From assembly GCA_964477745.1 (NCBI GenBank), contig CAYZEI010000006.1, forward strand, positions 1 through 55,601: a stretch of 55,601 nt of DNA. The letters are read 5' to 3'. Of the stretch, positions 6,159 through 49,245 are shown in pieces. Position 1 is the first letter of the stretch, and the number at the start of each line of letters is the position of its first letter. Made by a program: the position numbers and the translations under genes. A model generated the notes under the pieces. That model worked only from the letters and a program-made list of their open reading frames with translations, ran no database searches and was not told where the DNA came from. This DNA comes from an uncultured Candidatus Saccharibacteria bacterium (GTDB lineage Bacteria > Patescibacteriota > Doudnabacteria > UBA920).

Positions 6159-6198
6159 CATTCTACGCGACTCTGTAATTACAGAGTCGGGTAGAATT
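6159..6198. repeat. 40-nt near-perfect palindrome (copy 1 of a 2-copy family)
   Basis: 'attctacgcgactctgtaattacagagtcgggtagaat' has one arm mismatch. 37 of 38 nt are identical to the copy at 6998-7035. It lies just downstream of the PaaX-like gene and upstream of the 1097-aa gene. Confidence 0.9.
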
Positions 6199-6225: not shown

Positions 6226-6903
6226 TTAAATAATTCCTTTTTCTTTAAAATGATCTTTCAACTTTTTTAAATCTTCCGGATCTAGTGATACAACCTCCAT
6301 AACTGTGACAAATCTTTCCACTTTATAATACGCCGATGCAAACCCAACTTCCTCCCTCGGGTCAAACGGATAGACCCACACAGTGCGCTGAAGCGGATAC
6401 AAACCCATCCTTTTTACTTTCTGTCTAAATAAATCGGCATTGGAGCGGTATGGATTAGACGGGATATCCGCCAGCGCCAGCCACCAATGCCCATCCCATT
6501 TGCGGGCTCGCTTAATTTGCATAAACCTAAATTGCATCATGTCAATTTGTTTTTGCCCCTTGCCGGTAATTTTTATGGTAAAATCTTTGCCGTTCGGTTC
6601 CAGGATTACATAACCTTTATTTTTTAAATAGTAAAAAGTTTTGGCAATTTTTTTTCGCTGATCATCACGCTTAGTATTCCATTGAGAATAAGTTTTCTTT
6701 CTCCACGGAACTTTATCCAAAATTTGAAACAGATTTGGCGCAACCGCCGCCACGGTAATAACTCCTGCCATCACCGTAACCGCCAAAATCACTTGGGCAA
6801 TATTTTCAAATAATTTAATTTCCGAATTGCTTATTTTAAACTTTTGTTTTGGCGCTCCGGATTTTACTAAATCCGAAATATTTACCTTACTATATTTATC
6901 CAT
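6226..6903 (-). CDS. PaaX-family-like protein (N-terminal TM anchor, winged-helix region, PaaX_C/Cas2-fold-like C-terminus)
   Basis: 225-aa ORF. 'WDGHWWLALADIPSNPYRSNADLFRQKVKRMGLYPLQRTVWVYP' fits the PaaX C-terminal domain pattern W-DG-W-x-IP-x-R-x-LR-x-G-x-VWV-P. The hydrophobic helix is 'VILAVTVMAGVITVAAVAP'. Confidence 0.6.
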   Translation of the reverse strand: MDKYSKVNISDLVKSGAPKQKFKISNSEIKLFENIAQVILAVTVMAGVITVAAVAPNLFQILDKVPWRKKTYSQWNTKRDDQRKKIAKTFYYLKNKGYVILEPNGKDFTIKITGKGQKQIDMMQFRFMQIKRARKWDGHWWLALADIPSNPYRSNADLFRQKVKRMGLYPLQRTVWVYPFDPREEVGFASAYYKVERFVTVMEVVSLDPEDLKKLKDHFKEKGII

Positions 6904-6995
6904 ATTTTTAGGATTAAGGGTATTTAAATCCTAAATTAATTATACTACTTTTGCAAAATTTGTTAAATTTTCAATCCTCTCATCTTCATAAATTA

Positions 6996-7037
6996 GTATT
7001 CTACGCGACTCTGTAATTACAGAGTCGCGTAGAATAC
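6996..7037. repeat. 42-nt perfect palindrome (copy 2)
   Basis: 'gtattctacgcgactctgtaattacagagtcgcgtagaatac' equals its own reverse complement. It lies about 90 nt upstream of the PaaX-like gene start. Confidence 0.95.
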
Positions 7038-7084
7038 TCGCAAGTGTTATTGAATAAATGTATTAACAATTACCGAGCGAACAA

Positions 7085-10090: not shown

Positions 10091-10320
10091 TTGATATATT
10101 GATTTTTGTTTTGATTTTACTTAAAGTTTTAGCGAAAAAAATATCTTATCACATACAACAAAAAATATCCTTGCGGGAATAACAATATTTAAACGCCCTC
10201 TTTATAAATTGTATTTTTCTTTTGGTTTCTTTGCTGTTTCTAACTTAACTACTATTATTATAGCATATCTAAAGAAATTTTGCAAGAGCAAATAAAAAAG
10301 TGTATCATAAATTAAGTCTT

Positions 10321-10854
10321 ATGAATTATTTTACAAAAAAACTCTTGGTTTTGCTGTGCATTGTGCTTTTTTCTGTTGCTTGCTCCGGCAACAACCACTC
10401 CCCCGCTTCAAATATAAAACCGGCTTACGATTACTCCCACAAATTGGAAATTGGAAAAGAAATTTTGTTAGTGGAAGTTGTTAGTGACGAAAAAAAAATG
10501 CAAACCGGATTGTCTAATCGCGAAAAGTTAAATAACAATAACGGTATGCTATTTGATTTCGGGGTGAAAAAAGTAGCCCGAAACTTCTGGATGAAAAATA
10601 TGTTGTTTGATATAGATATAATTTGGATTGCGGACAAAAAAATAATCGGCATTACGCCGAATGTTCGTGCCCCCAAAAAAGATGAAGGATTTCCGCCAGA
10701 GGCGGATCCGCCTCTGGCGGAAGAGATTAAAGATTTAAGATTGCCAACCTACCAAGCTCCTGCCGAGATTGACCAAGTGTTGGAAGTAAACGCCGGCTGG
10801 TCAGAAAAAAATAAAATAAAAGTTGGAGATGAAGTAACTAGCGTCAAATTCTAA
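10321..10854 (+). CDS. DUF192-family lipoprotein
   Basis: The 'GLSNRE..NGMLFDF...FWMKNMLFDIDIIWI....VLEVNAGW....GDEV' pattern is typical of DUF192/COG1430. The lipobox-like sequence is 'LFSVAC'. The ATG at 10321 is preferred over the GTG at 10300. Confidence 0.8.
   Translation: MNYFTKKLLVLLCIVLFSVACSGNNHSPASNIKPAYDYSHKLEIGKEILLVEVVSDEKKMQTGLSNREKLNNNNGMLFDFGVKKVARNFWMKNMLFDIDIIWIADKKIIGITPNVRAPKKDEGFPPEADPPLAEEIKDLRLPTYQAPAEIDQVLEVNAGWSEKNKIKVGDEVTSVKF
10691..10722. repeat. 32-nt perfect GC-rich palindrome inside the DUF192 CDS
   Basis: 'ttccgccagaggcggatccgcctctggcggaa'. 30 nt are identical to 52640-52669. It is translated in frame as 'FPPEADPPLAE'. Confidence 0.95.
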
Positions 10855-11856: not shown

Positions 11857-11864
11857 ACAATTGA

Positions 11865-11932
11865 TTTTACGAAGTACGAAATTATACGAACTTACGAATT
11901 CGTACATTAGTACATATTCGTACTTCGTAAAG
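11865..11932. repeat. 68-nt TACGAA-word palindromic element (copy 1)
   Basis: It fills the uvrD-rsmA intercistronic gap, is centred on gaattc, and is 62/68 identical to 18390-18457. Confidence 0.95.
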
Positions 11933-11934
11933 AC

Positions 11935-14088
11935 TTAAAAGTCCATTGGCTCCACGCTAAGCTCGCCATCATCATCTTTAAAATGATTTTTGGCCAGGCC
12001 CTTGTATTCTATATTACTTTTTGGTAAGACTTTTAAAATCCGTGACGGTGTGTTTACCTGCAAGTTACCAAAGACCCGACGATTTACAGTATACACCAAA
12101 TACAGCCGTTTGCGTGCCCGGGTTAGACCGACATAGGCCAAGCGAACTTCTTCGGAAAGTTCGTCAGGATTTATTAAACTTCTAGAGTGCGGCAAAATTC
12201 CTTCTTCTAACCCGACAAAAAAGACGTTATCAAATTCCAAACCCTTGGCTGAATGCAAAGTCATTAACGTGACCACGTCGCGCGCGTCGTCTTTTTGGTC
12301 AATTTCGGCGAGCAGAGCCACCTCTTCCAAAAATTCCTGCAATGCTTTGGCCCAAGGCAGATTGCGAAATTTATGAGCCACGTTAATTAACTCCTCCACG
12401 TTTTCCCAACGCGACTCACCTTTTTCACTGCCGTCTTTAACCGACCGCTCGTAGCCCATTCTTCTGACAATTTGAGTCATTAGCTCGGGCAAAGTCGACC
12501 GGGCATTAAAATCACTCAGTTCTTCCAAGGTGGCAAAAAACTCCTGCGCCGCGGTAAAAGCTTTGGGCTGAAGTTTTACTTCCGCAAAGTGAGTGCGAAA
12601 ATCTTTTAGGCTCAATTCTTGGCCCGTGGAATTTAAATTTAAAATAAAATCCCTAATTACTGCATACGACTTATCCCCCAAGCCCCTGGCCGGCTCATTA
12701 ATGACACGCTTTAAAGACACCAAGTCGCGATAATTTATAACCAAACGTAAATACCCCAGCATATCTTTAACTTCTTTGCGGTCATAAAATTTTAGCCCCC
12801 CGACAATTTGGTACGGAATCGAGGCTTCAATTAAGGCTTCTTCAATCGCACGACTCTGTGCGTGTGTCCGATATAAAATACAATATTCGGTCAAAGCATC
12901 ATGAGTTTTGGGCAACTGCGGAAGCACTCCACCACTGCCTCGGCTAAAATTCGCGGAAAATTGCGCCTGCATCTTTTTTGCCATAATAAACCGATCCAAA
13001 ATGCTATACCCTTTCTTTGGCGTTATGTCTTCCTCTGCCTCGTATTCCACTTCGGTCTTGGCGGGACTGGCCAGCTTCACTATAGTTCTGGCTACAAATT
13101 CCGCCTCGCCCCGCTCATCCGCCTCGCAGGTTAGGACAATCTTCTCGCCTTGGGGATTTTCCGTCCACAGAGTTTTAGGTTTTTGCTCGGGGTTTAGCTC
13201 AATAACCTTTTGTGCCGCTTCCAGAATATTTTTGGTGGAGCGGTAATTTTGTTCTAATTTGATTACCAAGCTTTCCGGGTAATCCTTTTCAAAATTCAAG
13301 ATGTTAGTAATGTCGCTTCCGCGAAACTTATAAATACTTTGGGCGTCGTCCCCGACTACAAAAATATTGCGGGAGACAGCCAACATCGACAGCAGTAAAT
13401 ACTGCGCCTGGTTAGTGTCCTGATACTCATCTACTAATATATAGGTAAACTTTTTTTGGTATTTTTTTAGCACCTCGGGGAAATTCTGAAAAATTTTCAC
13501 GGTCAGCATTAGCAGATCGTCGAAATCCAGGGCGTTTTGCTTATACAGCGCGTCCTGATAACGGGCATAAACTTCCACCAAACGCTCCCGCAAAGGAGAT
13601 TCCAAGCCCAAATTCAACTCATCCGGGGTTTGGAGCAAATTTTTTCCGCGAGAGATTAGCGCGCCAAACATGGATGCCGGCAATTTTTTACTGTCTATAC
13701 GTAAATCTTCCAATATCTCCTTAATGGTTTTTTGCTGGTCGTCAGTATCAAATATTACAAACCCACTGCCATAACCTAAAGCGGTAATTTCGTGACGCAA
13801 GATCTTGGCGCAAACCGAATGAAAAGTGCCCATGGTTAAACTATCTGCTGCGGTTTTATTTTTGGCCAATAACTTACTAACCCGCTCGCGCATCTGTTTT
13901 GCCGCCTTGTTGGTAAAGGTCAAAGACAAAATATGCTCCGGCGTCACCATCTTCTTCTCTATAATATAAGCAATCCGATTGGTTAAAGTCTTGGTTTTAC
14001 CGCTACCTGGGCCCGCCAAAAGTAAAATCGGCCCCATTGGCGCTGTTACTGCTTCTTTTTGTTTTTCGTTTAAAGAGGTTAAATCCAT
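11935..14088 (-). CDS. uvrD: ATP-dependent DNA helicase, UvrD/PcrA family
   Basis: The Walker A is 'AGPGSGKTKTL'. 'LVDEYQDTN', 'VGDDAQSIYKFRG' and a C-terminal 'VGLTRAR' motif are also present. Confidence 0.92.
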   Translation of the reverse strand: MDLTSLNEKQKEAVTAPMGPILLLAGPGSGKTKTLTNRIAYIIEKKMVTPEHILSLTFTNKAAKQMRERVSKLLAKNKTAADSLTMGTFHSVCAKILRHEITALGYGSGFVIFDTDDQQKTIKEILEDLRIDSKKLPASMFGALISRGKNLLQTPDELNLGLESPLRERLVEVYARYQDALYKQNALDFDDLLMLTVKIFQNFPEVLKKYQKKFTYILVDEYQDTNQAQYLLLSMLAVSRNIFVVGDDAQSIYKFRGSDITNILNFEKDYPESLVIKLEQNYRSTKNILEAAQKVIELNPEQKPKTLWTENPQGEKIVLTCEADERGEAEFVARTIVKLASPAKTEVEYEAEEDITPKKGYSILDRFIMAKKMQAQFSANFSRGSGGVLPQLPKTHDALTEYCILYRTHAQSRAIEEALIEASIPYQIVGGLKFYDRKEVKDMLGYLRLVINYRDLVSLKRVINEPARGLGDKSYAVIRDFILNLNSTGQELSLKDFRTHFAEVKLQPKAFTAAQEFFATLEELSDFNARSTLPELMTQIVRRMGYERSVKDGSEKGESRWENVEELINVAHKFRNLPWAKALQEFLEEVALLAEIDQKDDARDVVTLMTLHSAKGLEFDNVFFVGLEEGILPHSRSLINPDELSEEVRLAYVGLTRARKRLYLVYTVNRRVFGNLQVNTPSRILKVLPKSNIEYKGLAKNHFKDDDGELSVEPMDF

Positions 14089-17674: not shown

Positions 17675-18388
17675 TTAAATTCCCTTTAAATACACTTCCG
17701 ATTTTATTTTCCGTTCCAGCTGATATTCAATAAATTCCGACATTAAAGCCTGAAGTTGGCTTAATGACTGTGGGGAAAATTTTAATACTGCCACATCTGC
17801 CGGACGAGCGGTTTTTAATTGCAAAAATAGCTGGTACCCTTCCCAAGTAACCGTTACACCGCCCGGATTTGACGAAAAACCGCCTGATGCGGGGCTAAAA
17901 TACAGTCGTTGGTCAGAGTGAGCCTGTGGAGGATAATGAACCGCAAAACCCACAGTTTCTAAAGCGGATAGTTTAAACTTTAATAAACCCAAATCCAATA
18001 TTTCGACATTTGGACTTGAATTTAAAAATTCCAAAAAGCTTTCAAAAATAAAAAATAATTTTTCATTTTTTTGCTCATCGGCGGAAAATTTTAAAACAAA
18101 TTCCAAGGAATAAAAGGCATAGCGTAAACCCTCCAGATTTTCCCGTAAAGAAGAATAAGTTTTAACGGTTTCCACACCAATAACTTTAGGCAAAGTCCCG
18201 GTCGTGACCCGAACCTCCACAAAAAACAAAGCCTGCAATTTTTGTTGCAGTTTTGATTTAGCGCTCTTAACCGATTTCGCGAGCACGCGAACCTTCCCCT
18301 GTTCCTTGGTAAACAGAGTAATTATTTCGTCGGTATCACCGAAAGGCTGTTTTTTTAAAATAATGCCGGTGTATGTATTTTCTCTCAT
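17675..18388 (-). CDS. recO: DNA repair protein RecO
   Basis: The N-terminal OB-fold signature 'GIILKKQPFGDTDEIITLFTKEQGKVRVLAKSVKSAKSKL' is present, and the length (237 aa) fits. Confidence 0.85.
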   Translation of the reverse strand: MRENTYTGIILKKQPFGDTDEIITLFTKEQGKVRVLAKSVKSAKSKLQQKLQALFFVEVRVTTGTLPKVIGVETVKTYSSLRENLEGLRYAFYSLEFVLKFSADEQKNEKLFFIFESFLEFLNSSPNVEILDLGLLKFKLSALETVGFAVHYPPQAHSDQRLYFSPASGGFSSNPGGVTVTWEGYQLFLQLKTARPADVAVLKFSPQSLSQLQALMSEFIEYQLERKIKSEVYLKGI

Positions 18389-18389
18389 A

Positions 18390-18457
18390 TTTTACGAAGT
18401 ACTAAACTCTACGAACTTACGAATTCGTACTTTCGTATATATTCGTACTTCGTAAAG
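18390..18457. repeat. 68-nt TACGAA-word palindromic element (copy 2)
   Basis: It fills the ileS-recO intercistronic gap from stop to start codon. Confidence 0.95.
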
Positions 18458-18459
18458 TC

Positions 18460-21400
18460 TTATATTTTGATTATTCCCAACCAAATGGCTTTTCCGCCGA
18501 TCTCCGCTTGGATTTCAAAGTCTGCTTCCACTTCATAGCTTTTGGAAATTTGGCTGACAAAAGTTTTTTTCCGGTCTACCAATTTCAGCAAACAGCTTTC
18601 CAAGTTTTCATCTTGGGTATTGTAATATAAATCCACCAGCTCCCCTGGTTTAAGCCCGCTTTTTTTGCGCAAATCCTGAACCTGTCGTTCCAGCTCTCTG
18701 GCAGTTCCTTCCAGTTTTAATTCCGGTGTAAGGCGGGTATCAAGGTAAAAGTTTTCCACGGTTCCAACGCCGGGAACAATTATTATGCCGGTGTCCGGTC
18801 TTGAATCTTTATCTAATAAACTGGCATCGATTTCTTTAATATTTAACTCTTCCAAAATCAGTTTATTAAATTCTTCCGGCAAATTTGTGTCTTTTTGCTT
18901 AGATGAAAAAGCGATTGCGCGGAGTGGCTGGCGTACGGGTAAAGCTTTGTCTTTACGGATTGCCAAGCCCAAGGTGGAAACTTCACGCACTATATCCATT
19001 TTACTGAACACGTCCGACTCCACGGCAAACACAGACAAATTGGACCACGAAGCCAAATGTACGGATTCTTTGCCAGTCACGTCTTTATAAATAAAGTCGG
19101 CCAAAAACGGCATATATGGAGCCAGCATTTTACTGAGCTCGGCTAAAACATAACTTAAAGTTTCTCCGGCCTGCTTCCCTTCTTGCCCTTCCATTTTTAA
19201 ACGATCCCGGCTCCGGCGCAAATACCAAGTGGACAGGTCGTTAATAAAGTCCACCATATCTTTTCCGGCTTTGACCGTATTATATTCGTCCAAATAATTG
19301 GTAACTTTTCCGTGTAATTCAAATAGTTTGGCCAGTATCCAGCGGTCCAACACATGGTCTGAAGTGGGCTTACTTTCCGGCGCCGTGCCTTTGTAGTACA
19401 TGCGCAAAAAGCTCCAAACATTATAAAGCAACATATTAACTTTTCGGCTAATTTCCGAAACGCCTTTTTCGCTAAAATTAAAATCATCGCCGTTCATTAC
19501 CGGAGAGACCAATAAATAAAACCGAATCGGGTCAATGCCGAATTTTTCTATGAGGATGTTCGGGTCGGGAAAATTATTTTTGCTCTTGGACATTTTACTG
19601 CCGTCCTCGGCTAAAATATTTCCGGTGGTCACCACGTTCTTAAACGGGGCTTTTTCAAAAATGGTGGACGACACGGCATGCATGACATAAAACCAGGCGC
19701 GGGTTTGCGCAATATATTCGGCCACAAAATCCGCCGGGAATCTGGCTTTAAACAATTCCTTATTTTCGAACGGGTAATGCAGTTCGGCAAACGGCATAGA
19801 AGCGGACTCTACCCAGCAATCCACCACTTCCGGAACCCGGCTCATTTGTCCGCTACACTTTTCGCACTTTACTTTAACCCGGTCTATATAGGGACGATGC
19901 AGATCAATAGATTCAAGATTTAAAATTTCGGATTTTAGATCCTGGCCTCTTTCGGTTAAATCTTTAATCTTTAATCTTAAATCTTCTGATTCCGGGTATA
20001 CTTCTTGGAAGTTGGTTGATTTAGCAATTAATTCTCCAATCGAACCAATACAAACTACATCTCTACAGTCTTCCCGGTCGCATTTCCAAAACGGCAAAGC
20101 CGTAGCCCAAAATCGGTTGCGGGAAATATTCCAATCCGGCGCTTGCGCCATGCTGTTGCCGAACCGGCCGTGCTTTAAGTGCTCGGGGTACCAATTTATA
20201 TCTTCGTTATTTTTTATTAAATCTTGCTTAACCGATTGAATGTTAATAAACCAAGCAGGAAGTGCATTGTAAAACAACGGAGTGCCACAACGATAACAAT
20301 GCGGATAGGAGTGGGTATAGCTTTCGGTTTTATAAACTTTTCCGGTTTCGGTTAACTCTTTTAAAATAATTTTGTCGGCATTCTTAAAGAACACTCCGCG
20401 CAAATTTTCCGGCGCCATTTCCATATAATGGCCTTTGTGGTCCAACATATCCACGCGCGGTAAATTCTTGGCCTTGGCTAACTGATAATCTTCTTCACCA
20501 TACATAGCGGCATTATGCACAATCCCCGTACCATCGGTTGTGGTCACAAAATCGGCTATATAAATTTTATGAGCCCGGTTATTTGGGTCTGTAATTACTC
20601 CCGGATAAAGTGGCTCATAAGACAATCCTTCAATAGCGCGCGCCGGAAATTCCGCCACAGTTTCATAAGCGCCCTCAATTATGGACAGTCTATCTTTGGC
20701 TAAAATATAGCGCTCCCCATTTTCCTGTTCAATTAACACATAACGAATATCCCCGCCAATATTTAGCGAAGTATTTCCCGGCAAGGTCCAAGGTGTGGTG
20801 GTCCAGGCCAAGCAGTAAGTTTTATCGTTAGTAAGGTCGTTTATTATTCTTTGCCGAGGGGTCAGCCTAAACTTGGCGTACACCGATTCTTCGGTCACGT
20901 CTTTATAGCTGTTATCCATAGCCACTTCAAAATTAGAAATGGGAGTCTCACAGCGGGAACAATAAAGTAGAACTTTACGGTCTTCGTAAATTAACCCTTT
21001 ATTCCAAATTTGTTGCAAGGCCCACCAGACCGATTCCTGGTAACTGGTATCCATGGTCTTGTAGGAATTTTCAAAATCCACCCAGCGTCCCATTCGGCGC
21101 ACGGTTTTCCCCCACTCGTCGGCAAACTTAAGTACGTTGTCCCGACAGACTTTATTAAACCGGTCCACGCCTAGTTCTTCAATTTGTTTTTTGCCAGAAA
21201 TTTTTAAATTTTGCTCTACAATATTTTCAATTGGCAAGCCGTGACAATCCCAACCCCAACGCCTTCGGACAAACCGCCCCTTCATAGTTTGGTAACGCGG
21301 TATGGCGTCTTTTATAGTGGAAGCAAGAATGTGACCGTAATGCGGTAAGCCCGTAGCAAAAGGCGGACCGTCGTAAAAAATATACGGCTCATACGTCTTT

Positions 21401-23552: not shown

Positions 23553-23728
23553 GATACTACCATAATTACCCTACTACTATAACATAAAACCCACCTGTTT
23601 CACAAATTCACCTGCTCTGGAAGAGGTGTCCCCTCTTCCAATTCAATTTTATGGTGTAATGAGGAATATTCTTGAGATTAACGCCGATGGTTTTAAGCCT
23701 AAAAAAATGCTAAAATTATTCTATCTTT

Positions 23729-24187
23729 ATGAAATCTACTCAATCCTCTTTTGGCGGAAAAATTTTCGCTGACAATAAACGAGCCCGGTTTGATTACGAC
23801 ATTAAAAACACTTTAATGGCGGGTTTGGTTTTGTCCGGACCGGAAGTAAAGTCCGTAAAAATGGGAAATATATCTTTAACCGGTGCATATGTTACTGTCT
23901 CGATCTCTGGTGCTTCACTGATTAACTGTCATATTGGTCCTTACAAGTACGCCAAAAACGAAAAGTATAACCCTACTCAAACCCGTGGGCTTCTTCTAAA
24001 GAAAGATGAAATAAATGAACTGTTGGGAAAAGAAAAAGGACTAACCATAATCCCCTTGGAAATATTTTTGGGTAACCGAGGTTTAATAAAAATGAAAATT
24101 GGCTTGGGCAAAGCCCGCAAAAAAACCGACAAACGCGAATACATAAAAAAACGCGACGCGCAAAAAGAGATTAGAGCATCATTTTAA
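23729..24187 (+). CDS. smpB: SsrA-binding protein
   Basis: 'NKRARFDYDI', 'GLVLSGPEVKSVK' and the basic C-terminal tail 'GKARKKTDKREYIKKRD' are present. Confidence 0.93.
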   Translation: MKSTQSSFGGKIFADNKRARFDYDIKNTLMAGLVLSGPEVKSVKMGNISLTGAYVTVSISGASLINCHIGPYKYAKNEKYNPTQTRGLLLKKDEINELLGKEKGLTIIPLEIFLGNRGLIKMKIGLGKARKKTDKREYIKKRDAQKEIRASF

Positions 24188-29521: not shown

Positions 29522-29605
29522 TTCACCTCCATTTTATGCCAAGTTTTTTCGTAGTCAAAACTCAGCGGTAAAGTATTATTTCATAAACCAAAATATAAAT
29601 CAAAT

Positions 29606-29650
29606 AAAAATAGCACGATTTTAACGGCCGTTAAAATCGTGCTATTTTTA
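29606..29650. terminator. 45-nt perfect palindrome / bidirectional terminator
   Basis: 'aaaaatagcacgattttaacggccgttaaaatcgtgctattttt' lies just downstream of the 71-aa gene on the minus strand. Confidence 0.75.
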
Positions 29651-29668
29651 TTCTCTGCAGAATTTAAA

Positions 29669-29968: not shown

Positions 29969-30006
29969 CATGACATAAATTACGCGGCCGCGTAATTTAT
30001 GTCATG
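29969..30006. repeat. 38-nt perfect palindrome
   Basis: 'catgacataaattacgcggccgcgtaatttatgtcatg' lies between two minus-strand cassettes. Confidence 0.9.
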
Positions 30007-36909: not shown

Positions 36910-37098
36910 GGCTTTATCCTTAGTTGATTAAAGCCGGCGCAGAAACACAAAGCCCCACGCCAGCCGGTCCCTTGCGGAACCCATACCCCTTTCGAGATAT
37001 GACTCGTTGAAAAGTTGCTGGACGTGAGGTCCAGTATTTTCAACGAGTTTTGCGTGCCATGCCCGGGCAGGTTGCTCGGGTTTAGGCATTCAGTTGTA
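36910..37098 (-). promoter_or_regulatory. GC-rich structured 5' leader (candidate cis-regulatory RNA) of the 76-aa gene
   Basis: An 18-bp interrupted hairpin pairs 'actcgttgaaaa..ctggac' with 'gtccag..ttttcaacgagt'. There is also a GCAA-capped hairpin, 'ggttccgcaagggacc'. The putative promoter TTGATA-17-TAAAAT lies at about 37102-37130 on the minus strand. Confidence 0.45.
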
Positions 37099-37752: not shown

Positions 37753-38007
37753 GTGAAACCAGCCCGCGTCAGTCAAAAATTGAAAACTAAAAAACTTAAC
37801 ACCCAATCTTCCGGCTTCAATTCGACCGAAGTTGAACCCGAGTTGTTAAAAGATTCGATCTCCGATAAAAGAATAAGCGAGTATAGGCAAATACTAAAAG
37901 ATAATCATAGCTCTGACGAACAGGTTAAAAAACGCTTAAGCTACCTTGAATCCCTATGCCACAATATTATAAGGCTTGAAATAATAAATTATCAAAATAA
38001 AAAATGA
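37753..38007 (+). CDS. small hypothetical protein upstream of the recombinase
   Basis: 84-aa ORF with a GTG start. Its stop overlaps the recombinase ATG (ATGA). Confidence 0.4.
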   Translation: MKPARVSQKLKTKKLNTQSSGFNSTEVEPELLKDSISDKRISEYRQILKDNHSSDEQVKKRLSYLESLCHNIIRLEIINYQNKK

Positions 38008-39620
38008 GTAAAGCAAGGAAAATAAGAATTATAAATGAAAATTACCCCTACACAAAAGCAATAATATATTGCCGTGTTTCTTCAGAGCGCCAAGTAAACG
38101 ACGGACATGGCTTAGATGGCCAAGGAGTTAGGTGCCATCAAAGAGCTGAATCACAAGGTCTTGAGGTGGTTAAGGTATTCCGTGAAGAAGGTGTGTCTGG
38201 AAAACTGTTTGACCGTCCGGCAATGGCGGAGCTTATAGGGTATTTAGACAATCATGCAAAAGATAGGTTTGTCATTATCTTCGACGACTTAAAACGCTTT
38301 GCGAGAGATTTGGAAGTTCATTTAAAATTGAAAGCGGAGTTAGTTACTAAACGAGGGGCAAAATTGGATTGTCTTAATTTCAATTTTGAAAACAGCCCGG
38401 TTGGTCGGGCAATAGAAAATATTATGGCGGCTACTGCACAATTAGAGCGCGAACAAAATGCAGAGCAAGTTATAAATAAAATGAAAGCACGATTAGAAAA
38501 AGGCTATTGGGCTTTTGGCCGCAGAAAAGGTTATGACATGGTTAAGAATCCTGTTCATGGTATGCTTTCTGTCCCAAACAAAGACGGACAAATATTAAAG
38601 GAAGCTTTAGAAGGTTTTGCAGCAGGGATTTATATCCGCAAAATTGATGTTTGCCGTTTTCTTTTACAGAAGCATTTTTGGAAGACACAAAAAGCCGAAA
38701 AATATATTGATAAAATAACCGATATAATGCGCGATCCTTTTTACGCTGGTCATATTGAATATTCTGCTTGGGAAGTCTCGCGCCGCAAAGGACATCATCA
38801 AGGTATTATTTCCCTTGAGACTTTTGATCTAATACAAAAACGCTTGCGTAAAGTTGACCTAAACCAGCGCATACGTCTTGATACATCGCCAGACTTCCCG
38901 TTGCGTGGAGTAATAATCCACGATGAGTGTAAAGGGCACCTTACGAGCGCCTGGTATCCCAATGGTAAGGGTAAGAAATACCGCAAATATGTTTGCCATA
39001 CTAAGGGTTGCCCAAGCTATAATAAACCTTTCTCCGCAGATGAAATGGAAAGCAAATTTGCAGAGGTTCTGAAAAAGGGAGCTGTAAAAAAGGAAACTGA
39101 TTTGATTTTAAAAAAAATATTTGATCAGGTTTGGGAAGATGAGGTGGCAAAAATAAAGGAGTCGGAGCAAAATTCAGAGCAACAAAAAAGAGCCCTTGAG
39201 AAAAGGCTCTCTGACCTTACAGATTTAATGCTAGCAGCTAAGTCCCCGGCGCTGAAGCGTAATTATGAAAAACAGTCAGTGAAAGCGGCTAGCGAAATTG
39301 AGACAATAGAGGGAAAATCAACGAATGGGATCGACCTAACTATCCCTTATCAAACCGCGTTAGAAAAGGCCACTATGTTGCTAAAAATGCCCTACATTGC
39401 TTGGAAAAAGCTCAATGTCCACGAACAGCACGCCTTGTTTTTTTTCTTTTTTCAGGAAAAACTTCCTTACTCTATAAAAGAGGGTTATCAAACCCATCAA
39501 ATTCCTTATGCTGCAAGGCTATTTGAAGATTTTGTAACCCAAAATACCCAATTGGTGGAGATGCCGGGAGTTAAACCCGGGTCCAAAACTAATTCACTTC
39601 CCAATTATTCACAAGATTAG
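38004..39620 (+). CDS. large serine recombinase
   Basis: The N-terminal resolvase catalytic motif is 'AIIYCRVSSERQVNDGHGLDGQ'. A recombinase domain, a Cys-rich zinc-ribbon region ('CKGHLTS...CHTKGC') and a coiled-coil C-terminus follow. 538 aa. Confidence 0.9.
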   Translation: MSKARKIRIINENYPYTKAIIYCRVSSERQVNDGHGLDGQGVRCHQRAESQGLEVVKVFREEGVSGKLFDRPAMAELIGYLDNHAKDRFVIIFDDLKRFARDLEVHLKLKAELVTKRGAKLDCLNFNFENSPVGRAIENIMAATAQLEREQNAEQVINKMKARLEKGYWAFGRRKGYDMVKNPVHGMLSVPNKDGQILKEALEGFAAGIYIRKIDVCRFLLQKHFWKTQKAEKYIDKITDIMRDPFYAGHIEYSAWEVSRRKGHHQGIISLETFDLIQKRLRKVDLNQRIRLDTSPDFPLRGVIIHDECKGHLTSAWYPNGKGKKYRKYVCHTKGCPSYNKPFSADEMESKFAEVLKKGAVKKETDLILKKIFDQVWEDEVAKIKESEQNSEQQKRALEKRLSDLTDLMLAAKSPALKRNYEKQSVKAASEIETIEGKSTNGIDLTIPYQTALEKATMLLKMPYIAWKKLNVHEQHALFFFFFQEKLPYSIKEGYQTHQIPYAARLFEDFVTQNTQLVEMPGVKPGSKTNSLPNYSQD

Positions 39621-40218
39621 CTAAGTTTAATACCTCTATGACAATAACTTAGCAAATAGTCATAAAGGGTAATTTACGTGTCTTAAGTTTGCGGGTGCAA
39701 ATCAAATCCGCAAACAGCAGTCCTGTATGAACCCGGGTGTCTAAAGTCAGGACGAACTTAAGGCCGGGATCTTAACTTAATAAATTAAGCTAAGACTGGT
39801 TGCAAGTCGGCGTTTTGAAACGCGGCTACAACTTTATTCCATGCGTTAGCATTTGTTTGTGTCCGAGGGATTTACGAGGCTTCAGACTGGCTCGTCTTGC
39901 ATATTAGAAAATGTCAAAGTCCTGTCAAAATCCGTCATCCCCAGTAGAATCACCTTGCAATTGTTCGCTGGTTTTCACCAACAATATTATCACAAGGAAA
40001 TGGATACCAAGAGATGGCCAATAGATTTAAATGCATATACACAGCTCACACTGTTGGTTTGCAAGGTAGCTCTACTGGGCATCCCCGTGGGCTCTATAAT
40101 ACCATAAAATTAGCCTTTTATCAATGCTCTAAGTTGGCTACTTATTATAAGTATAGGCAACAAATGGATCATATCTACATTATGATTCATTCCTTTGCCC
40201 ATTTTTGTTCGATTGATA

Positions 40219-44093: not shown

Positions 44094-44882
44094 ATGTACA
44101 ATTTACTCCCCACCCTAAGTCCACAGGACCAGTATCTTCAAGGGATTCTTTCTAAATATAAAGCGGTTCACCCACTTTTAAATCCCCAATTAAATTTAGC
44201 CCAACAGCAAGTAGTTTCTCATATAAAAAATTGGTCGGGAAACCAACTCAGTTCGATAATACTATCGGGGTCCAACGCAAAAGGAACAGCATTGGTAACG
44301 TCTGCTGATGTTGATTTATTTATTTCTTTAAAACCTACTACCGTTGAAAATCTAAGAGAGCTTTATAATAAGCTTGATACAAGGCTTAAAGATTTAGGCT
44401 ATTCAACCTTGCGTCAAAACGTGTCGATTGGCATATATCATAATCACTATAAATTTGACCTTGTGCCAGCAAAGCTACAGCCAGGCCTTACTTCAAACCA
44501 CTCGATATACAAAAGAAAGCAGGATTCTTGGCAACAAACAAATATACATAAACACATTTCGGTAGTGAAAAATTCAGGTAGAATTAATGAAATATTGTTG
44601 GCGAAAAGATGGAGAGAAATTCACAACTTCGAATTTCCATCATTATATGTGGAATTGACCGCCATAGACGCATTAACCGGCTTCAGGATTGGTGATGTGG
44701 CAAATAACTTTTGGCGGTTATTAACTTATTTATCAAATAAATTCATTAGTTCTAGGGTAATCGACCCTGGAAATACAAATAATGCGATCTCAGACGATTT
44801 AACTCTGCAGGAAAAACTCCTAATTTCAAATCAAGCAAAAGCAGACTTACAAAAACAACATTGGGAAAAAATAATTTGGTAA
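44094..44882 (+). CDS. pol-beta superfamily nucleotidyltransferase (SMODS / CD-NTase-like)
   Basis: 'LSGSNAKGTALVTSADVDLF' gives the GS...DxD motif, with the third acidic residue in 'KFDLVPA'. The C-terminal half is helical. 262 aa. Confidence 0.75.
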   Translation: MYNLLPTLSPQDQYLQGILSKYKAVHPLLNPQLNLAQQQVVSHIKNWSGNQLSSIILSGSNAKGTALVTSADVDLFISLKPTTVENLRELYNKLDTRLKDLGYSTLRQNVSIGIYHNHYKFDLVPAKLQPGLTSNHSIYKRKQDSWQQTNIHKHISVVKNSGRINEILLAKRWREIHNFEFPSLYVELTAIDALTGFRIGDVANNFWRLLTYLSNKFISSRVIDPGNTNNAISDDLTLQEKLLISNQAKADLQKQHWEKIIW

Positions 44883-44887
44883 CAAAT

Positions 44888-45634
44888 ATGAGCAAAAATA
44901 AGATCGATATCAAGACAATTTTCTCTGGCCTCCAACAACAAATGGAAGCCCGCCTAACGCTAAATAAAAAGGTTATAAAACACCCAACTACCAAAGGAGA
45001 CGCTTCGGAGTTAGAATGGGCAGATATGTTATCTGTATATTTACCCAAACGATACTGTATTGATAAGGCCTTCGTTATTGATTATGAAGGGAATGTGAGC
45101 GAACAAATCGATTTAGTAATTTTTGACAGACATTATTCACCTTTTATATTAAAACAAAATGGGGCAATCTATTTACCCGCTGAATGTATCTACGCAGTAA
45201 TTGAAATTAAACCAGATTTATCATTATCCCACTTAAAATATGCTGCAAAAAAAGCTACCTCAGTAAGAAAACTAAAAAGAACAACTGCTACTATCGTCCA
45301 AGCAGATAACCAGAAATTTAAACAAAAAGACCCCCCAAAAATATTAGCGGGAATTCTTACTTTAAATGGAAACTTATCGGTTGGTATGAAACAATATCTT
45401 CAAAACCTTAAGGAAGAGAATCGGCTTAATTTTGGGTGTTCCTTATCTGGGGTGCTTTTTACTCAAACTAACTATGACCCCTACGAGGTTGGCGATGTAA
45501 CTTATGAGTTTAAGACTCTGAAAGATAATCCAAATAGCCTAATTTTATTCTTTCTGAACTTACTTCAAGAATTGAGGAAAATGGGGACAGTCCCTGCAAT
45601 GGACTTAGAAAAATATATAAAAAATATAAAATAA
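44888..45634 (+). CDS. PD-(D/E)xK restriction-endonuclease-fold protein (DUF6602-like)
   Basis: 'KGDASELEW...LP..Y', 'QIDLVIFD' and 'IYAVIEIK' give an E...D...ExK arrangement. About 120 aa at the C-terminus are unassigned. The ATG lies 5 nt after the NTase stop. Confidence 0.7.
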   Translation: MSKNKIDIKTIFSGLQQQMEARLTLNKKVIKHPTTKGDASELEWADMLSVYLPKRYCIDKAFVIDYEGNVSEQIDLVIFDRHYSPFILKQNGAIYLPAECIYAVIEIKPDLSLSHLKYAAKKATSVRKLKRTTATIVQADNQKFKQKDPPKILAGILTLNGNLSVGMKQYLQNLKEENRLNFGCSLSGVLFTQTNYDPYEVGDVTYEFKTLKDNPNSLILFFLNLLQELRKMGTVPAMDLEKYIKNIK

Positions 45635-45644
45635 CTAGCACGTT

Positions 45645-45705
45645 TATAAATCTAAATGGGGACATGACCCATTTAGGCTTTTTTGTACAAAGTTATTTAT
45701 TCACC
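45645..45705. repeat. direct repeat copy A (terminator hairpin + TTTTTTGTACAAAG + TTATT-ATT-AC)
   Basis: It is roughly 90% identical over its ~45-nt core (about five differences) to 47765-47822. It contains the hairpin aaatggg/cccattt plus a T-tract, which is the terminator of the nuclease gene. Confidence 0.8.
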
Positions 45706-45710
45706 ATAAA

Positions 45711-45746
45711 CATAAAAATATGCCCGCGGAATTGCTTCCGCGGGCA
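45711..45746 (-). terminator. terminator of the GH17 gene
   Basis: The stem tgcccgcggaa/ttccgcgggca has a 4-nt loop and is followed on the minus strand by 'tatttttat'. Confidence 0.85.
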
Positions 45747-45765
45747 CTGTGCTGAAACTGACTGA

Positions 45766-47697
45766 CTAACGGGTTACTGTGGTAGTGGCCACCGCCCCGC
45801 TCAGCGTTGGGAGGTTTGAATCTCCATACGCTAGCGGAATGGTATAGCCAATCGGTACCACGAATGCCGTCACCATATCGGCTTCTTCGTCGACACCTCC
45901 GGTGTCGATGTCGCAGATAAAACTTCCATCTGCATTTATTGTTGTTCCAGGGGAACTCCAATATGGTTTTGTCCACCACCATCCGCGAACGCGGATGTAG
46001 ACCGCGACCTGGTAGTCACTCGGCAGTACGTGCAGGACCGTTCCTGCAACGCTCCCATTGAGTGCATACCTTGGGGTTACAGATGTGAACTGGATGGATG
46101 CCTTGCCCGGTCCACCAGGGATGGGGTTAGGCGTTGGTGTGGGAGTTGGCGTCGGCGTTGGAGTGGGAGTTGGCGTGGGGTTTGGACCGGGTGCTGGAGT
46201 TTGAACAGGAACCGTTGGGCTCCAGTTGTCCGGAATGGTCTTACCGGAAAACACATCCAACATACCAGGTTTCAAATTCCCTTCCGAATCAAGTACTCCC
46301 CAGTTCTTTCCTTGCGGACCTTCATACCGCTCCTTCCACGGTTCGTCGTACGCTTCAAAGTAGAAGTATTTGACGTTCCGTGCACGCGCCCAAGACACAA
46401 AGTTCAAAAAGTACTGAGACGCATTCCTGGCGGAAGGCACCGCAGTATTGATGGTGTTGCCGGCACTCGGCCAACCGGTTTCGGAAACGATGATCTCCTT
46501 ATTCGGGTACTTGGCCTTGAGTTTTTCGTAGTTGGAATTGAGAGATATCATCGCCTCTTCAATTTTCGTCCCCTCCCAGTATGGGTAGGAGTTGAAGAGA
46601 ACTACGTCGCTTACGGCAACCACTTCCGGGTGGTCGTAGAGCGAAGCGAAGGTGTCAGCCGTGGCGACGATCGCCCCCGGAGCAGACTGCTTAACCCATG
46701 AAATATACGTGGCGAGTTGCGGGCCGGTAAGGTCCCGGCGATACAGCGTCTCCGAACCGACAATCAGCATCCCACCATAGCCGGCTTTGTAAGACGCAAG
46801 CATACTTTGAAGTTCCAGATCGTTGGCCTGGCTGTTGTTGTTTAACCAAGCACTGAGAACTGCTTTGACTCCATAGCGCTTGCAAATCTTCCCAAACATC
46901 TCCATGCCGTTGGTGTTGCCGTAGGCGCGAAGCCACTGAGTATATGGAGCGAGCCGACTAATCCGCTCGTCCAGTTGCTCTTCGCTTACTACAAAGCCCG
47001 TAGCCGGATCCTGAGTTCCGATGTACGGACCAAAGTCCAGCCCGTGCAAAACATAACTGACCGGCGTGCCCACCGTAAACGAGATTGGGTTGGACTCGTC
47101 GCCCGTGGTGAACCGGAGCCACTCCACCCAACCTCCTTCGGAGGTTTTGGGGAATGCCCCAGACAAGTACCACGCGCCCTTGTCGTCCGTCTTGCCAAGG
47201 CTTTGGCAGGAATAAGCACTTGCTCCTTGCGAAGCGCAGTGCTCAACCAAGGCATTCGGGATTCCACCGGTGTACTTGAGTATCCAACCTTGGTTGGGGG
47301 TAAAGTTGCCCCCGACCGAATTGTTTATCGTGAGTGTCCCCAAGGTGGGAACGCTAACGGTAAAAGCAATCCTGTTGGACGTTGCGCCGGATGGAAATTC
47401 CATCCATTGCACCCAGGTGCCTTCCGTGCCGGGGGTGAACGTCCCTGTGGCTTTCCAGACGCCCTTGGCGTCCGTTTTGCCAAAATTCGGCACGCATAGG
47501 GGTACGCGATCCCGAATTTCGCAGTAGGTGAACACCGCATCTGAATGCGGGCTCACGAGTTCGAGCGTCCAGGCTTGCCCCTTGGCAAAACCGCCACCGA
47601 CTCCACCGTTAATGGTCAAACTCCCGTTGATAACGGGAGCGCCATAGAGACTGACCGCCATAGTTATGACAGCCAGAATGCCTCTGACTTTCTGCAT
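45766..47697 (-). CDS. secreted glycoside hydrolase family 17 (beta-1,3-glucanase-like) with two N-terminal ~95-aa repeats, a Pro-Thr linker and a C-terminal beta-rich domain
   Basis: 'KEIIVSETGWPSAG' matches the GH17 nucleophile signature. The signal peptide is 'MQKVRGILAVITMAVSLYGAP' after the SD 'aaggaggg'. The linker is 'PNPTPTPTPTPTPTPTPNP'. Confidence 0.85.
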   Translation of the reverse strand: MQKVRGILAVITMAVSLYGAPVINGSLTINGGVGGGFAKGQAWTLELVSPHSDAVFTYCEIRDRVPLCVPNFGKTDAKGVWKATGTFTPGTEGTWVQWMEFPSGATSNRIAFTVSVPTLGTLTINNSVGGNFTPNQGWILKYTGGIPNALVEHCASQGASAYSCQSLGKTDDKGAWYLSGAFPKTSEGGWVEWLRFTTGDESNPISFTVGTPVSYVLHGLDFGPYIGTQDPATGFVVSEEQLDERISRLAPYTQWLRAYGNTNGMEMFGKICKRYGVKAVLSAWLNNNSQANDLELQSMLASYKAGYGGMLIVGSETLYRRDLTGPQLATYISWVKQSAPGAIVATADTFASLYDHPEVVAVSDVVLFNSYPYWEGTKIEEAMISLNSNYEKLKAKYPNKEIIVSETGWPSAGNTINTAVPSARNASQYFLNFVSWARARNVKYFYFEAYDEPWKERYEGPQGKNWGVLDSEGNLKPGMLDVFSGKTIPDNWSPTVPVQTPAPGPNPTPTPTPTPTPTPTPTPNPIPGGPGKASIQFTSVTPRYALNGSVAGTVLHVLPSDYQVAVYIRVRGWWWTKPYWSSPGTTINADGSFICDIDTGGVDEEADMVTAFVVPIGYTIPLAYGDSNLPTLSGAVATTTVTR

Positions 47698-47764
47698 AGG
47701 GCCCTCCTTAGGGGACTTCATTATAGTACAAACAGGACACCTACTCAAATCCTAAATTTAGGGA

Positions 47765-47822
47765 AAAAATAAAATGGAGCCTGGCCCATTTTAGGTTTTT
47801 TGTACAAAGCTATTCATTGACA
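47765..47822. repeat. direct repeat copy B
   Basis: 'aaaatggagcctggcccattttaggttttttgtacaaagctattcattgaca'. It runs into the TTGACA -35 of the next gene. Confidence 0.8.
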
Positions 47823-47845
47823 ATACCACAGAAATGTGGTATTTT
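47817..47845 (+). promoter_or_regulatory. sigma70-type promoter
   Basis: TTGACA - 17 nt - TATTTT, with TGn immediately upstream of the -10. Confidence 0.65.
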
Positions 47846-47925
47846 TTAAAGTCTACTTTCTTGTCTTCTTGTCCTCAAACCAGAGACAAAAATGTAGCTG
47901 TGTAAATCCACCAGAGGTGACAACT

Positions 47926-48189
47926 ATGCCCGGTACGACAAATCCGTTGCAGTTTCTTGGGGAATCTCTCGCCGCCGCTGACGGCGACAAATTCACGCCC
48001 GAAAAGTTCATAACCATGCTCGATGAGTTGTTCGCCGCCGCGAAAAAGAGCCCCAATCTCACGCTGATTGTTGTGGCTCGCCACAATGGTAATGTGGGAA
48101 TGCTCGGGGTTGCGGGCTCCGAAAGCATCAGCGGAAAGACAGGGTTCCTTGAAGCCCTCGAGCCGGTGATGACAGCACTGCAAAAATAA
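47926..48189 (+). CDS. hypothetical protein (GC-rich cassette)
   Basis: 87 aa from the ATG, preceded by 'agaggtga'. The antisense ORFs are rejected. Confidence 0.6.
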   Translation: MPGTTNPLQFLGESLAAADGDKFTPEKFITMLDELFAAAKKSPNLTLIVVARHNGNVGMLGVAGSESISGKTGFLEALEPVMTALQK

Positions 48190-48200
48190 GGAGGAAGTGC

Positions 48201-48473
48201 ATGTTACATTCAGTTGGACAATTGGTTGACTGTCCCGTAACTTGGGACGGTCACACTTTCACGGTGTACGATGAACGACTAACGCCGGGAATCCAAACCA
48301 GGCTGTCAGCAGTAAAAGAAGACTGCGGACTGGAAGACATGGACAACGGCGAAATGCACGGCAAGGTGACTGACTGTAATGCCGAAGGTCATATTCTCTG
48401 CCAGTTTGATGCTGAAGGCGCTGGCGTCTTCAACATTGCAGTCCCGCAAGGGATGTATATCGTCGTCTACTAA
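48201..48473 (+). CDS. hypothetical protein (GC-rich cassette)
   Basis: 90-aa ORF with the SD 'aaggaggaagtgc' before the ATG. Confidence 0.65.
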   Translation: MLHSVGQLVDCPVTWDGHTFTVYDERLTPGIQTRLSAVKEDCGLEDMDNGEMHGKVTDCNAEGHILCQFDAEGAGVFNIAVPQGMYIVVY

Positions 48474-48526
48474 CACCAAGAACAGGCCTTGGGGATTAAG
48501 GGCCACACGCAAACCAACACCGCATA

Positions 48527-48562
48527 AACTCGCAGTTCCCCACTGCGAGTTCTTTTTATTTT
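48527..48562 (+). terminator. rho-independent terminator
   Basis: The stem aactcgcagt/actgcgagtt is followed by 'ctttttatttt'. Confidence 0.85.
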
Positions 48563-48630
48563 AATTTCCGACACTATAGACAAGTACAAAGTTTTTTTGA
48601 TACTATAAAGCGTCTTTTAAGGAGGCTCAC

Positions 48631-49065
48631 GTGACCCTAATTTTCGGGAAGGTCTCTGACCTAACCCCTGAACAGCTGATTACTGCAATCCGACTAGCAG
48701 CACAACGGGAGTATGAACGACGTTTGCATTACCTCGCATATCACGACTGGGAGAAAGCTTGCCGTCGGGTGAAAACCGAAGACAATCCCAACCCGGCAGA
48801 TGATGAAATCCGCCCCGTTGCGGAAAAAGTTTACAAAGAGCGCATCAAACAAGAATCTCTCGATGAACGCAGATTGGCAACCGTACTACTCAAACAGGAA
48901 GGCAACAGCCACCCGACCGACGAGCAAATCCAATGGAAGACGGAACAACTTCACGAGGACTATAAACGCAAACAAGCAGAGGAAGACTGGCTCCAGACTG
49001 AAAAAAGCATCATCACGAGCCAGAGTGTTATGTACCCTATAGAATGGAGGAAATCAATCAGTTAA
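48631..49065 (+). CDS. hypothetical charged helical protein (GC-rich cassette)
   Basis: 144-aa ORF with a GTG start preceded by 'taaggaggctcac'. The putative promoter is TAGACA-18-TACTAT at 48577-48606. Confidence 0.6.
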   Translation: MTLIFGKVSDLTPEQLITAIRLAAQREYERRLHYLAYHDWEKACRRVKTEDNPNPADDEIRPVAEKVYKERIKQESLDERRLATVLLKQEGNSHPTDEQIQWKTEQLHEDYKRKQAEEDWLQTEKSIITSQSVMYPIEWRKSIS

Positions 49066-49090
49066 CGCTCTCAGGTCACCACCACACCCT

Positions 49091-49130
49091 ACCGCATACC
49101 ACCAGCCTTAATTGGCAAATGGTATGCGGT
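49091..49130 (+). terminator. hairpin accgcatacc/ggtatgcggt
   Basis: A 10-bp stem with a 20-nt loop and a T-rich tail. Confidence 0.55.
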
Positions 49131-49141
49131 TATTAATTTTT

Positions 49142-49172
49142 AACCACCGGCAAAAGCCGGTGGTTTTGTTTT
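49142..49172 (+). terminator. rho-independent terminator
   Basis: The stem aaccaccggc/gccggtggtt has an AAAA loop and is followed by 'ttgtttt'. Confidence 0.85.
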
Positions 49173-49216
49173 GGAAAATTTAGGGCTCTGTCCCCTTTTA
49201 TATAAACATAAGCGTG

Positions 49217-49245
49217 TTGACAAATGGGTAAAAAAATGCGATAAT
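49217..49245 (+). promoter_or_regulatory. near-consensus extended -10 sigma70 promoter
   Basis: TTGACA - 17 nt - (TGc)GATAAT. Confidence 0.7.

Follow-up and report, generated by a model that had tools for sequence, protein, structure and literature searches.

The 55,601-nucleotide stretch analysed here (hereafter the window; contig CAYZEI010000006.1, from an uncultured Candidatus Saccharibacteria bacterium of the Doudnabacteria lineage) carries one 30-nucleotide GC-rich sequence, TCCGCCAGAGGCGGATCCGCCTCTGGCGGA, at two sites, positions 10692-10721 and 52640-52669, each inside a different and unrelated protein-coding gene. We find that both copies are insertions, that they enter as exactly 30 nucleotides with no duplication of the target, and that they belong to a family of double-hairpin sequences that recurs in at least 119 genomic loci and at least 120 metagenomic loci. 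The best reading of this family is a structure-defined insertion element resembling either dimers of repetitive extragenic palindromes (REPs) or the palindromic elements of Rickettsia (RPEs), and it is likely that its members are inserted, dispersed and non-autonomous elements whose survival is filtered by how well the host protein tolerates the peptide they encode. The family looks previously undescribed: we found no description of it in the literature, coverage of which was incomplete, so novelty is not proven. Neither copy matches an Rfam family at gathering score, the nearest result being a weak match close to the first copy (E 0.25).

The 30-mer stands out sharply from its surroundings, with a GC content of 73% against 36-45% in the 2-kb windows around it, and each of its halves consists of a 6-bp stem closed by a 3-nt loop. 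In the first copy the two units read TCCGCC-AGA-GGCGGA (10692-10706) and TCCGCC-TCT-GGCGGA (10707-10721), and together with the adjoining T and A they make a perfect palindrome of 32 nt (10691-10722); the identical second copy divides into units at 52640-52654 and 52655-52669. Folded as single-stranded DNA the window's 30-mer has a minimum free energy of -17.5 kcal/mol (z = -6.7). No third match with three or fewer mismatches occurs in the window, where none is expected by chance (100 shuffles), and a covariance model of the family run over all 55.6 kb returns just the two copies, the first at 56.4 bits (E 5e-16) and the second at 61.6 bits (E 1e-17). Candidate degenerate copies were also sought and none was significant, the best lying on the minus strand at 23724-23762 (E 0.19). 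The original prediction, made from the letters of the window, had described a GC-rich perfect palindrome with hairpin halves that sits in frame, and in two different frames, in two unrelated AT-rich genes. Each of these statements holds for the window, although perfect palindromy proved not to be what defines the family.

The most precise view of the insertion comes from the second host, a CofE-like gene of the F420-0:gamma-glutamyl ligase family (51926-52708, plus strand; PF01996, Pfam F420_ligase E 4.6e-35). On the plus strand the copy is read as SARGGSASGG, the family's favoured frame, and supplies residues 239-248 of the protein, directly after an invariant phenylalanine (F238) and in a C-terminal tail beyond the end of the Pfam domain at residue 206, as had been foreseen. 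Its closest orthologues (L127 and L128, 91% and 88% identical) have an empty site that reads TTT|AAAAAA, with the stop codon further on, whereas filled sites in the window and in two further sequences (L131 and L133) read TT(C/T), the 30 nt and then AAAAAA. In the window the left half of the target is the Phe codon TTC (52637-52639, plus strand; TTT in the empty-site relatives) and the right half is the Lys-Lys sequence AAAAAA (52670-52675, plus strand; the same in those relatives). Comparison of empty and filled sites thus places an insert of exactly 30 nt between the Phe and Lys codons without target duplication. Of the 120 nearest CofE homologues, 114 have a Lys-rich tail after Phe238, and only about six contain an insert or its remnant. 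We considered and rejected a 28-nt insertion (CCGCC...GGCGG) into T^A, since Phe238 and the Lys-Lys tail predate the insert and proteins with an internal insertion are longer by exactly 10 residues. A second CofE clade has the element at the identical junction, with loops AAA/TCC in L131 and AGA/TCT in L133, and L132 has a mutated 30-nt remnant there. Given the empty sites in the window's own sister sequences, this requires that the junction gained the element two or more times, or else gained it once and lost it precisely in some lineages.

The first host encodes a lipoprotein-like DUF192 protein (10300-10854, plus strand; PF02643, Pfam E 1.4e-25) in which the copy, read on the plus strand as PPEADPPLAE, forms residues 132-141. 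The Pfam match aligns 123 residues of this protein to 93 profile positions, and the length of the loop that bears the insert differs across the family. The closest orthologue (P0002, 73% identical, on the syntenic Doudnabacteria contig L120) is without the ten residues. Alignment to orthologues, which had been proposed as the check on lineage-specific insertion, therefore gives the same answer for both host genes. In an AlphaFold2 model the ten residues are coil with a predicted local distance difference test score (pLDDT) of about 53, within loop blocks at 53-61, while the strands on either side reach 93-98, in keeping with the suggestion that this copy occupies a tolerant, lengthened loop. 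The copy is kept at the same DUF192 site in a relative that has diverged by about 9% (run X7). Contigs that join the element to DUF192 flanks were recovered from one run labelled as metatranscriptomic and from a second run that we only guess to be RNA, which weakly suggests that the element stays in the DUF192 mRNA, with carry-over of DNA as a possible source.

The same DUF192 loop holds a different GC-rich insert in two Doudnabacteria-like orthologues (P0003 and P0007; L122:3369-3420 and L125:3339-3390). This insert, CCCGCCCGCATGAGCCTTCGGCTC...GGCGGG, is read as PSAQSDGGQASP; in one relative it folds as a hairpin (z = -3.9), and another has a decayed version. GC-rich hairpin DNA has thus settled in this loop more than once.

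Beyond the window, we scanned one genome per species with the pattern CCGCC-NNN-GGCGGATCCGCC-NNN-GGCGG and assembled an independent second set from metagenome contigs. The loci carry TCCGCC-NNN-GGCGGA-TCCGCC-NNN-GGCGGA, and the copy statistics given below refer to the matches listed. The genome loci listed all come from metagenome-assembled genomes (MAGs) of uncultured bacteria, with a GC content of 30-70%. According to the database records they are labelled as many lineages of the candidate phyla radiation (CPR, or Patescibacteria), Omnitrophota, Kiritimatiellae, Verrucomicrobiota, Lentisphaerae, Planctomycetes, Ignavibacteria, Chloroflexota/Dehalococcoidia, Margulisiibacteriota, Auribacterota, Firestonebacteria, a Desulfotomaculaceae MAG and others, and 26 of the 30 positions are conserved across these phyla. 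In four independent sludge, wastewater or groundwater runs that contain the organism, contig depth rises exactly over the 30-mer, from about 4-14 to about 120-470 at the first copy and to about 160-680 at the second. There the 30-mer adjoins dozens of different flanks and k=31 contigs break at it, as a 30-nt repeat must cause in an assembler with that word length. No contig skipping the 30 nt was present in these runs, among assembled contigs, which drop rare variants. The proposal that the 30-mer is a dispersed repeat, to be judged by counting its copies, is borne out by the many contexts in which it was found. Carriage by phages or plasmids finds little in the databases searched, with just two matches among 2.9 million viral contigs and one partial, chance-level match (E 0.4, Streptomyces) among 72,556 plasmids; none of 5,426 E. 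coli genomes contains the element.

Comparison of the copies shows what the family has in common. The conserved core is T-CCGCC-NNN-GGCGG-A, present twice, so that two 15-nt units stand head to head. The two loops vary independently, and toward the centre each follows N-R-A, as 90% of units have a purine at position 2 and 95% have A at position 3. The first unit's loop reads N-R-A and the second's T-Y-N, so that the second unit is the first one inverted. Perfect palindromes make up 24 of 125 copies in the genome set and 15 of 123 in the metagenome set, about 16% overall, which makes palindromy incidental and the head-to-head pair of hairpins the defining trait. Non-palindromic members fold as two hairpins, and the window's perfect version is also able to form one long hairpin. 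Single 15-nt units also occur alone and, in some genomes, inside longer mosaic intergenic repeats.

That the hairpins themselves are under constraint is apparent from compensatory changes, found with a loose pattern and the covariance model and confined to one unit at a time. They include CTCGCC-AAA-GGCGAG with TGCGCC-TCT-GGCGCA (L093), TCAGCC-GAA-GGCTGA with CCAGCC-TTT-GGCTGG (L084), and the stems TCGGCC/GGCCGA (L109) and CCCTCC/GGAGGG (L055). In an alignment of 14 sequences, double changes affect 7 of 12 stem pairs and 94.6% of cells pair, a level of covariation approached by none of 500 shuffles and none of six slid registers.

The flanks are constrained as well, to TTYT at the left end and ARAA at the right (T at -1 in 97% and at -3 in 83%), a preference replicated in the metagenome set. 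The flank constraints of the two sides are present in 92 and 78 of 125 copies, and both together in 58 against 57.4 expected, so the two sides behave independently. In the window the first copy matches these consensus flanks partially, with GATT at 10688-10691 and AGAG at 10722-10725. Two explanations of the flanks were rejected: as an extension of the stem, they lack covariation between -2 and +2 (C/A 21 times, C/G 6 times), and as a target guided by the loop bases in the manner of IS608, they show no loop-flank association (Fisher p 0.6 and 0.3; all mutual-information tests non-significant).

Longer arrangements of the element occur in several loci. In a Kiritimatiellae MAG (L003:4480-4610, L006:4563-4830 and 6384-6470, and L053) the double hairpin is a module of longer intergenic mosaic repeats, adjoining GC-rich palindromes of the type GTCATTCCGAGCG..GGAATC...GGATGAC, an arrangement that recalls the bacterial interspersed mosaic elements (BIMEs) of enterobacteria. 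At L044:7580-7647 the first hairpin is interrupted by another 30-nt GC-rich insertion, and at L187:2331-2404 two elements lie 14 nt apart with AT-rich palindromic flanks on each.

A large share of copies lies within genes. Of the 125 elements in the genome set, 69 lie in open reading frames (ORFs) of at least 200 residues; counting the SAxGG frame alone, 58 of 125 copies lie in ORFs of at least 200 residues and, in the metagenome set, 63 of 123 in stop-free spans of at least 600 nt. Among internal coding copies, defined in the genome set by at least 30 open codons on both sides, the reading is SAxGGSAxGG in 42 of 46 (genome set) and 58 of 64 (metagenome set), or about 91%. The ORFs of these hosts offer 27 vacant TTT^AAA sites in the SAxGG phase against 41 in the PPxADPPxAE phase, so target availability cannot explain the bias, and selection on the encoded peptide does. 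Of 20 hosts scanned against Pfam, 17 could be annotated, and they are unrelated to one another and often essential: ArsA, Mfd, UvrB, DnaG, PolX, GH57, a MurA-like enzyme, two aspartyl-tRNA synthetase (AspRS)-type synthetases, cysteinyl-tRNA synthetase, a solute-binding protein, an S41 peptidase, a Mur ligase, GyrA, DnaJ, a glycosyltransferase and TsaD. Two AspRS orthologues that are 52% identical carry the 10-residue insert at different sites, each without the insert of the other.

Identical loop variants are shared by 9 of 22 pairs of copies from the same genome compared with 5.4% of pairs between genomes, an excess reached in none of 2,000 permutations and expected if copies are made within genomes. 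No gene travels with the element: all-against-all clustering of the ORFs in 1-15 kb around each element, first for 119 loci and then for 239, placed no gene family at more than 8 of the 239, which implies that the elements are non-autonomous. In these same flanks, and among the window ORFs scanned, we saw no REP-associated tyrosine transposase (RAYT).

In the favoured reading the family works as follows. Two 15-nt GC-rich hairpin units joined head to head make an element that looks the same on both strands, and it enters as exactly 30 bp, without target-site duplication, at a junction between a T-run and an A-run (TTYT^ARAA; TTT^AAA in the CofE-like gene). All six frames of the element are free of stop codons and its length is a multiple of three, so that it gives the receiving gene 10 residues instead of breaking it. 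Selection then purges most copies, and survivors are those in loops, tails and linkers and in the small, flexible SAxGGSAxGG frame, making the DUF192 copy a rare survivor in the PPxADPPxAE frame. Copying would be done in trans, and the enzyme responsible would bind the hairpins in their folded state, most plausibly in single-stranded DNA. This last step is a tentative proposal, drawn by likeness to the RAYT and IS200-type HUH transposases that act on REPs.

The nearest relatives in form are REPs and their paired arrangements (REPINs). Like these, the element is non-autonomous and built of short GC-rich hairpin units, usually head-to-head pairs making a palindromic dimer, and it too occurs as single units and as mosaics with other hairpin modules; some REP families are likewise common to distant taxa. 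Judged against the unit structure of the GTAG and CGTC superfamilies, which are mobilised by RAYTs whose genes the repeats often flank, 15-nt units with a 6-bp stem and a 3-nt loop qualify. The tag that marks REPs is absent, however, as GTAG, CTAC, CGTC or GACG stands within 10 nt of an end in at most 6 of 124 copies. REPs are also mostly extragenic and number from tens to thousands per genome, while over half of the present elements are in long ORFs and there are few per genome; near-identity across many phyla, a unit length of only 15 nt and the TTYT/ARAA flanks set it apart further. REP dimers do occur inside genes, where Di Nocera et al. (2013; PMC3733652) describe them in frame, notably in replication and repair genes of the uvrA, uvrB and recB type. 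Among our 17 annotated hosts, five belong to replication or repair (DnaG, UvrB, Mfd, GyrA and PolX, in L001, L020, L035, L091 and L108), a sample too small for a proper test, which parallels the excess of intragenic REPs that was reported for genes of this kind (PMC3733652).

In its behaviour the element also resembles the RPEs, to which the original prediction had likened it. As summarised in PMC10969869, the RPEs of Ogata et al. (2000) are about 100-150 bp long, encode 30-50 residues and are confined to Rickettsia. Both are palindromic repeats, selfish in the RPE case as that summary presents it, that lie in frame in unrelated and even essential genes and place their peptide at positions compatible with the fold. 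The likeness ends there: as far as that description goes, RPEs differ from an element of exactly 30 nt and 10 residues that spans CPR, Omnitrophota, Planctomycetes-Verrucomicrobia-Chlamydiae (PVC) and other phyla, and the present element carries no CGTC tag. The behaviour that had been predicted is therefore seen, and membership of the RPE family, with its members of about 150 bp, is not.

Other small repeats fit less well. Miniature elements derived from IS200/IS605 (palindrome-associated transposable elements, PATEs) have hairpin-defined ends, cause no target duplication and adjoin a short specific target sequence, but their left and right ends are asymmetric, they carry guide sequences and their target lies on one side only. 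The present element departs from this type, with both flanks constrained and no association between loop and flank. DNA uptake sequences and palindromes of the HIP1 type are short conserved intragenic motifs with a frame bias shaped by the encoded peptide; they arise by substitution and occur about once per kb, whereas the 30-mer is a 30-nt indel relative to orthologues, with two copies in 55.6 kb and no degenerate ones. Nor is it a miniature inverted-repeat transposable element, a class with terminal inverted repeats, a non-coding core (70-300 bp) and target duplication, since no core separates its units and no duplication accompanies it. Mitochondrial GC clusters, double-hairpin elements and related hairpin repeats are tiny GC-rich sequences with one or two hairpins that invade AT-rich genomes, sometimes in frame in protein genes, and to our knowledge no enzyme of their own is known. 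They are organellar and lineage-restricted, usually of other lengths and with flanking duplications, and no sequence similarity to the present element is expected. Repeats of these kinds are documented from fungi and sponges (e.g. PMC4478555, PMC2800124).

Several observations weigh against reading the family as a mobile, selfish insert. No mobilising enzyme was found in the sequence around the elements, and a transposition event was not directly observed. Copies per genome appear to be few, with about four beyond the ascertaining one in 847 kb and three in 796 kb, so that the window's two in 55.6 kb lie on the high side; classical REPs and REPINs are far more abundant. Independent constraint on both flanks is a poor fit to the one-sided target of single-strand transposition of the IS200/IS605 type, the same 26 positions are conserved from phylum to phylum, the covariation alignment was picked from covariance-model hits and is to that extent biased toward structure, and some of the taxon labels, such as 'TPA_asm uncultured Gammaproteobacteria', may be unreliable. 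The same insertion site is occupied in 18 of 43 pairs of homologous hosts at 40-78% protein identity, where the third codon positions on either side of the insert agree in only about 40% of cases. Two neighbouring paralogues (L203:16-546 and 763-1281), membrane proteins 42% identical with a helix-turn-helix gene between them, both begin M..MSA(Q/K)GGSA(S/F)GGKK and so have an intact element near each N-terminus. Intact copies at the same site in such diverged orthologues and paralogues are not expected of a purely selfish insert that decays neutrally; they could mean that some lineages maintain the element, through selection or copy-correction, or else that a hotspot is reused to an extreme degree. 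The stem identity of these pairs is circular, as the search pattern fixed the stems, but the sharing of sites is not.

A rival reading is a functional cis-element, a conserved DNA recognition site or RNA structure that would serve machinery common to these uncultured lineages and be kept by selection at the nucleotide level, with insertions installing new sites. Chromosome organisation, DNA uptake, control of a nuclease or restriction enzyme at the central GGATCC/GATC, or translational pausing might then be its role. The cross-phylum conservation, the intact copies in orthologues and in neighbouring paralogues, the small number of copies per genome and the five of 17 annotated hosts in replication and repair all speak for it. 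We nevertheless regard this explanation as unlikely. Presence is sporadic, as the CofE homologues illustrate, and the window's closest relatives are empty; decayed copies exist; the hosts are unrelated genes, entered in tails and loops, and have no common neighbourhood; and the strong frame bias resembles the limitation of damage more than design. Part of the apparent conservation, moreover, is the circular stem identity noted above.

Spread without any enzyme, by template switching or short-patch gene conversion with the T- and A-runs as microhomology and the hairpins stalling replication forks, is another account to which we give little credence. It would make sense of the missing target duplication, of flanks that are constrained on both sides as microhomology requires, of the lack of a linked gene and of the low copy number, and it agrees with the above-chance identity of loop variants within genomes and with the use of one TTT^AAAAAA junction in two separate CofE clades. 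Yet microhomology of three or four bases is very common (68 unoccupied TTTAAA sites in the host ORFs), which leaves the rarity of the element and its choice of sites unexplained, and the account explains neither why the stems are the same across phyla nor why loop position 3 is A in 95% of units.

A technical artefact (adapter, linker, chimera or assembly error) or a contaminating synthetic Gly-Ser linker, for which one might cite the BamHI site at the palindrome's centre, the appearance of GGSASGG as an engineered linker in papers, and the Logan contigs that break at the 30-mer or MAG contigs that end in it, is effectively refuted by copies that lie inside Nanopore contigs as long as 0.7-1.6 Mb and by others in Illumina data that many unrelated studies and laboratories assembled, by host reading frames that are always preserved, by variable loops, compensated stems and mutated remnants, by inheritance at one site in the 9%-diverged relative, and by the E. 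coli and plasmid results. The original prediction had named such an artefact as one thing that would refute it.

If the insertion-element reading is right, it has consequences for annotation, as thousands of proteins of uncultured bacteria, essential enzymes such as aspartyl-tRNA synthetase, primase, UvrB and gyrase among them, would contain ten residues that derive from invading DNA instead of protein evolution, with effects on annotation, alignment, phylogeny and structure prediction for CPR and similar genomes. A 30-nt element that has a defined structure and enters a precise target without duplicating it would also imply an insertion mechanism or enzyme that has not been recognised, of interest to mobile-element biologists and tool builders alike, and the strong preference for SAxGGSAxGG amounts to a natural experiment on which short insertions proteins tolerate. 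As the element is identical across phyla and also persists at orthologous sites, one may ask whether the family spreads horizontally or is maintained by selection. It is conceivable, though we would not presume it, that this is, at 30 nt, the smallest mobile or self-maintaining DNA family yet seen in bacteria, nearly unchanged across many phyla of uncultured and frequently ultra-small bacteria, installed precisely at TTT^AAA-type sites by new machinery and long kept at orthologous sites, and thus a functional site or a 'genomic symbiont' in the manner of REPINs and not junk.

The window contains further repeats and gene blocks besides the two copies. Perfect, loop-less and AT-rich palindromes of 36-50 nt, unrelated to the 30-mer, lie at 29603-29652, 29969-30006, 6995-7038, 53588-53623 and 55054-55095, all between ORFs of at least 150 residues; a second occurrence of one of them lies 838 nt away (6995-7038, with a near-copy at 6160-6197). 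A 74-nt repeat at 11864-11937 and 18389-18462, whose copies are 91% identical, is an imperfect palindrome rich in TACGAA and stands at the upstream ends of two minus-strand genes, one RrnaAD methyltransferase-like and the other at 17675-18388. A large serine recombinase with Resolvase and Recombinase domains (38004-39620) overlaps at its 3' end the transfer-messenger RNA (tmRNA) gene at 39553-39942 on the minus strand, and this region (38004-39942) looks like an element integrated at ssrA; a LOOT RNA lies at 36966-37088. A SMODS nucleotidyltransferase and a DUF6602 protein form a defence-like pair at 44094-45634, and within the region 44094-50000 they are followed by a segment that has a GC content of 49-53% compared with 36-44% elsewhere and encodes a GH17-like protein of 660 residues with GGNGTTGG-type repeats at 46130-46177. 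This is possibly cargo of the same island. Finally, a GC-rich stem of 18 bp (89% complementary), closed by a 3-nt loop and followed by a T-rich run, at 51154-51192 just upstream of a Vut_1 transporter gene, looks like a terminator unrelated to the 30-mer.

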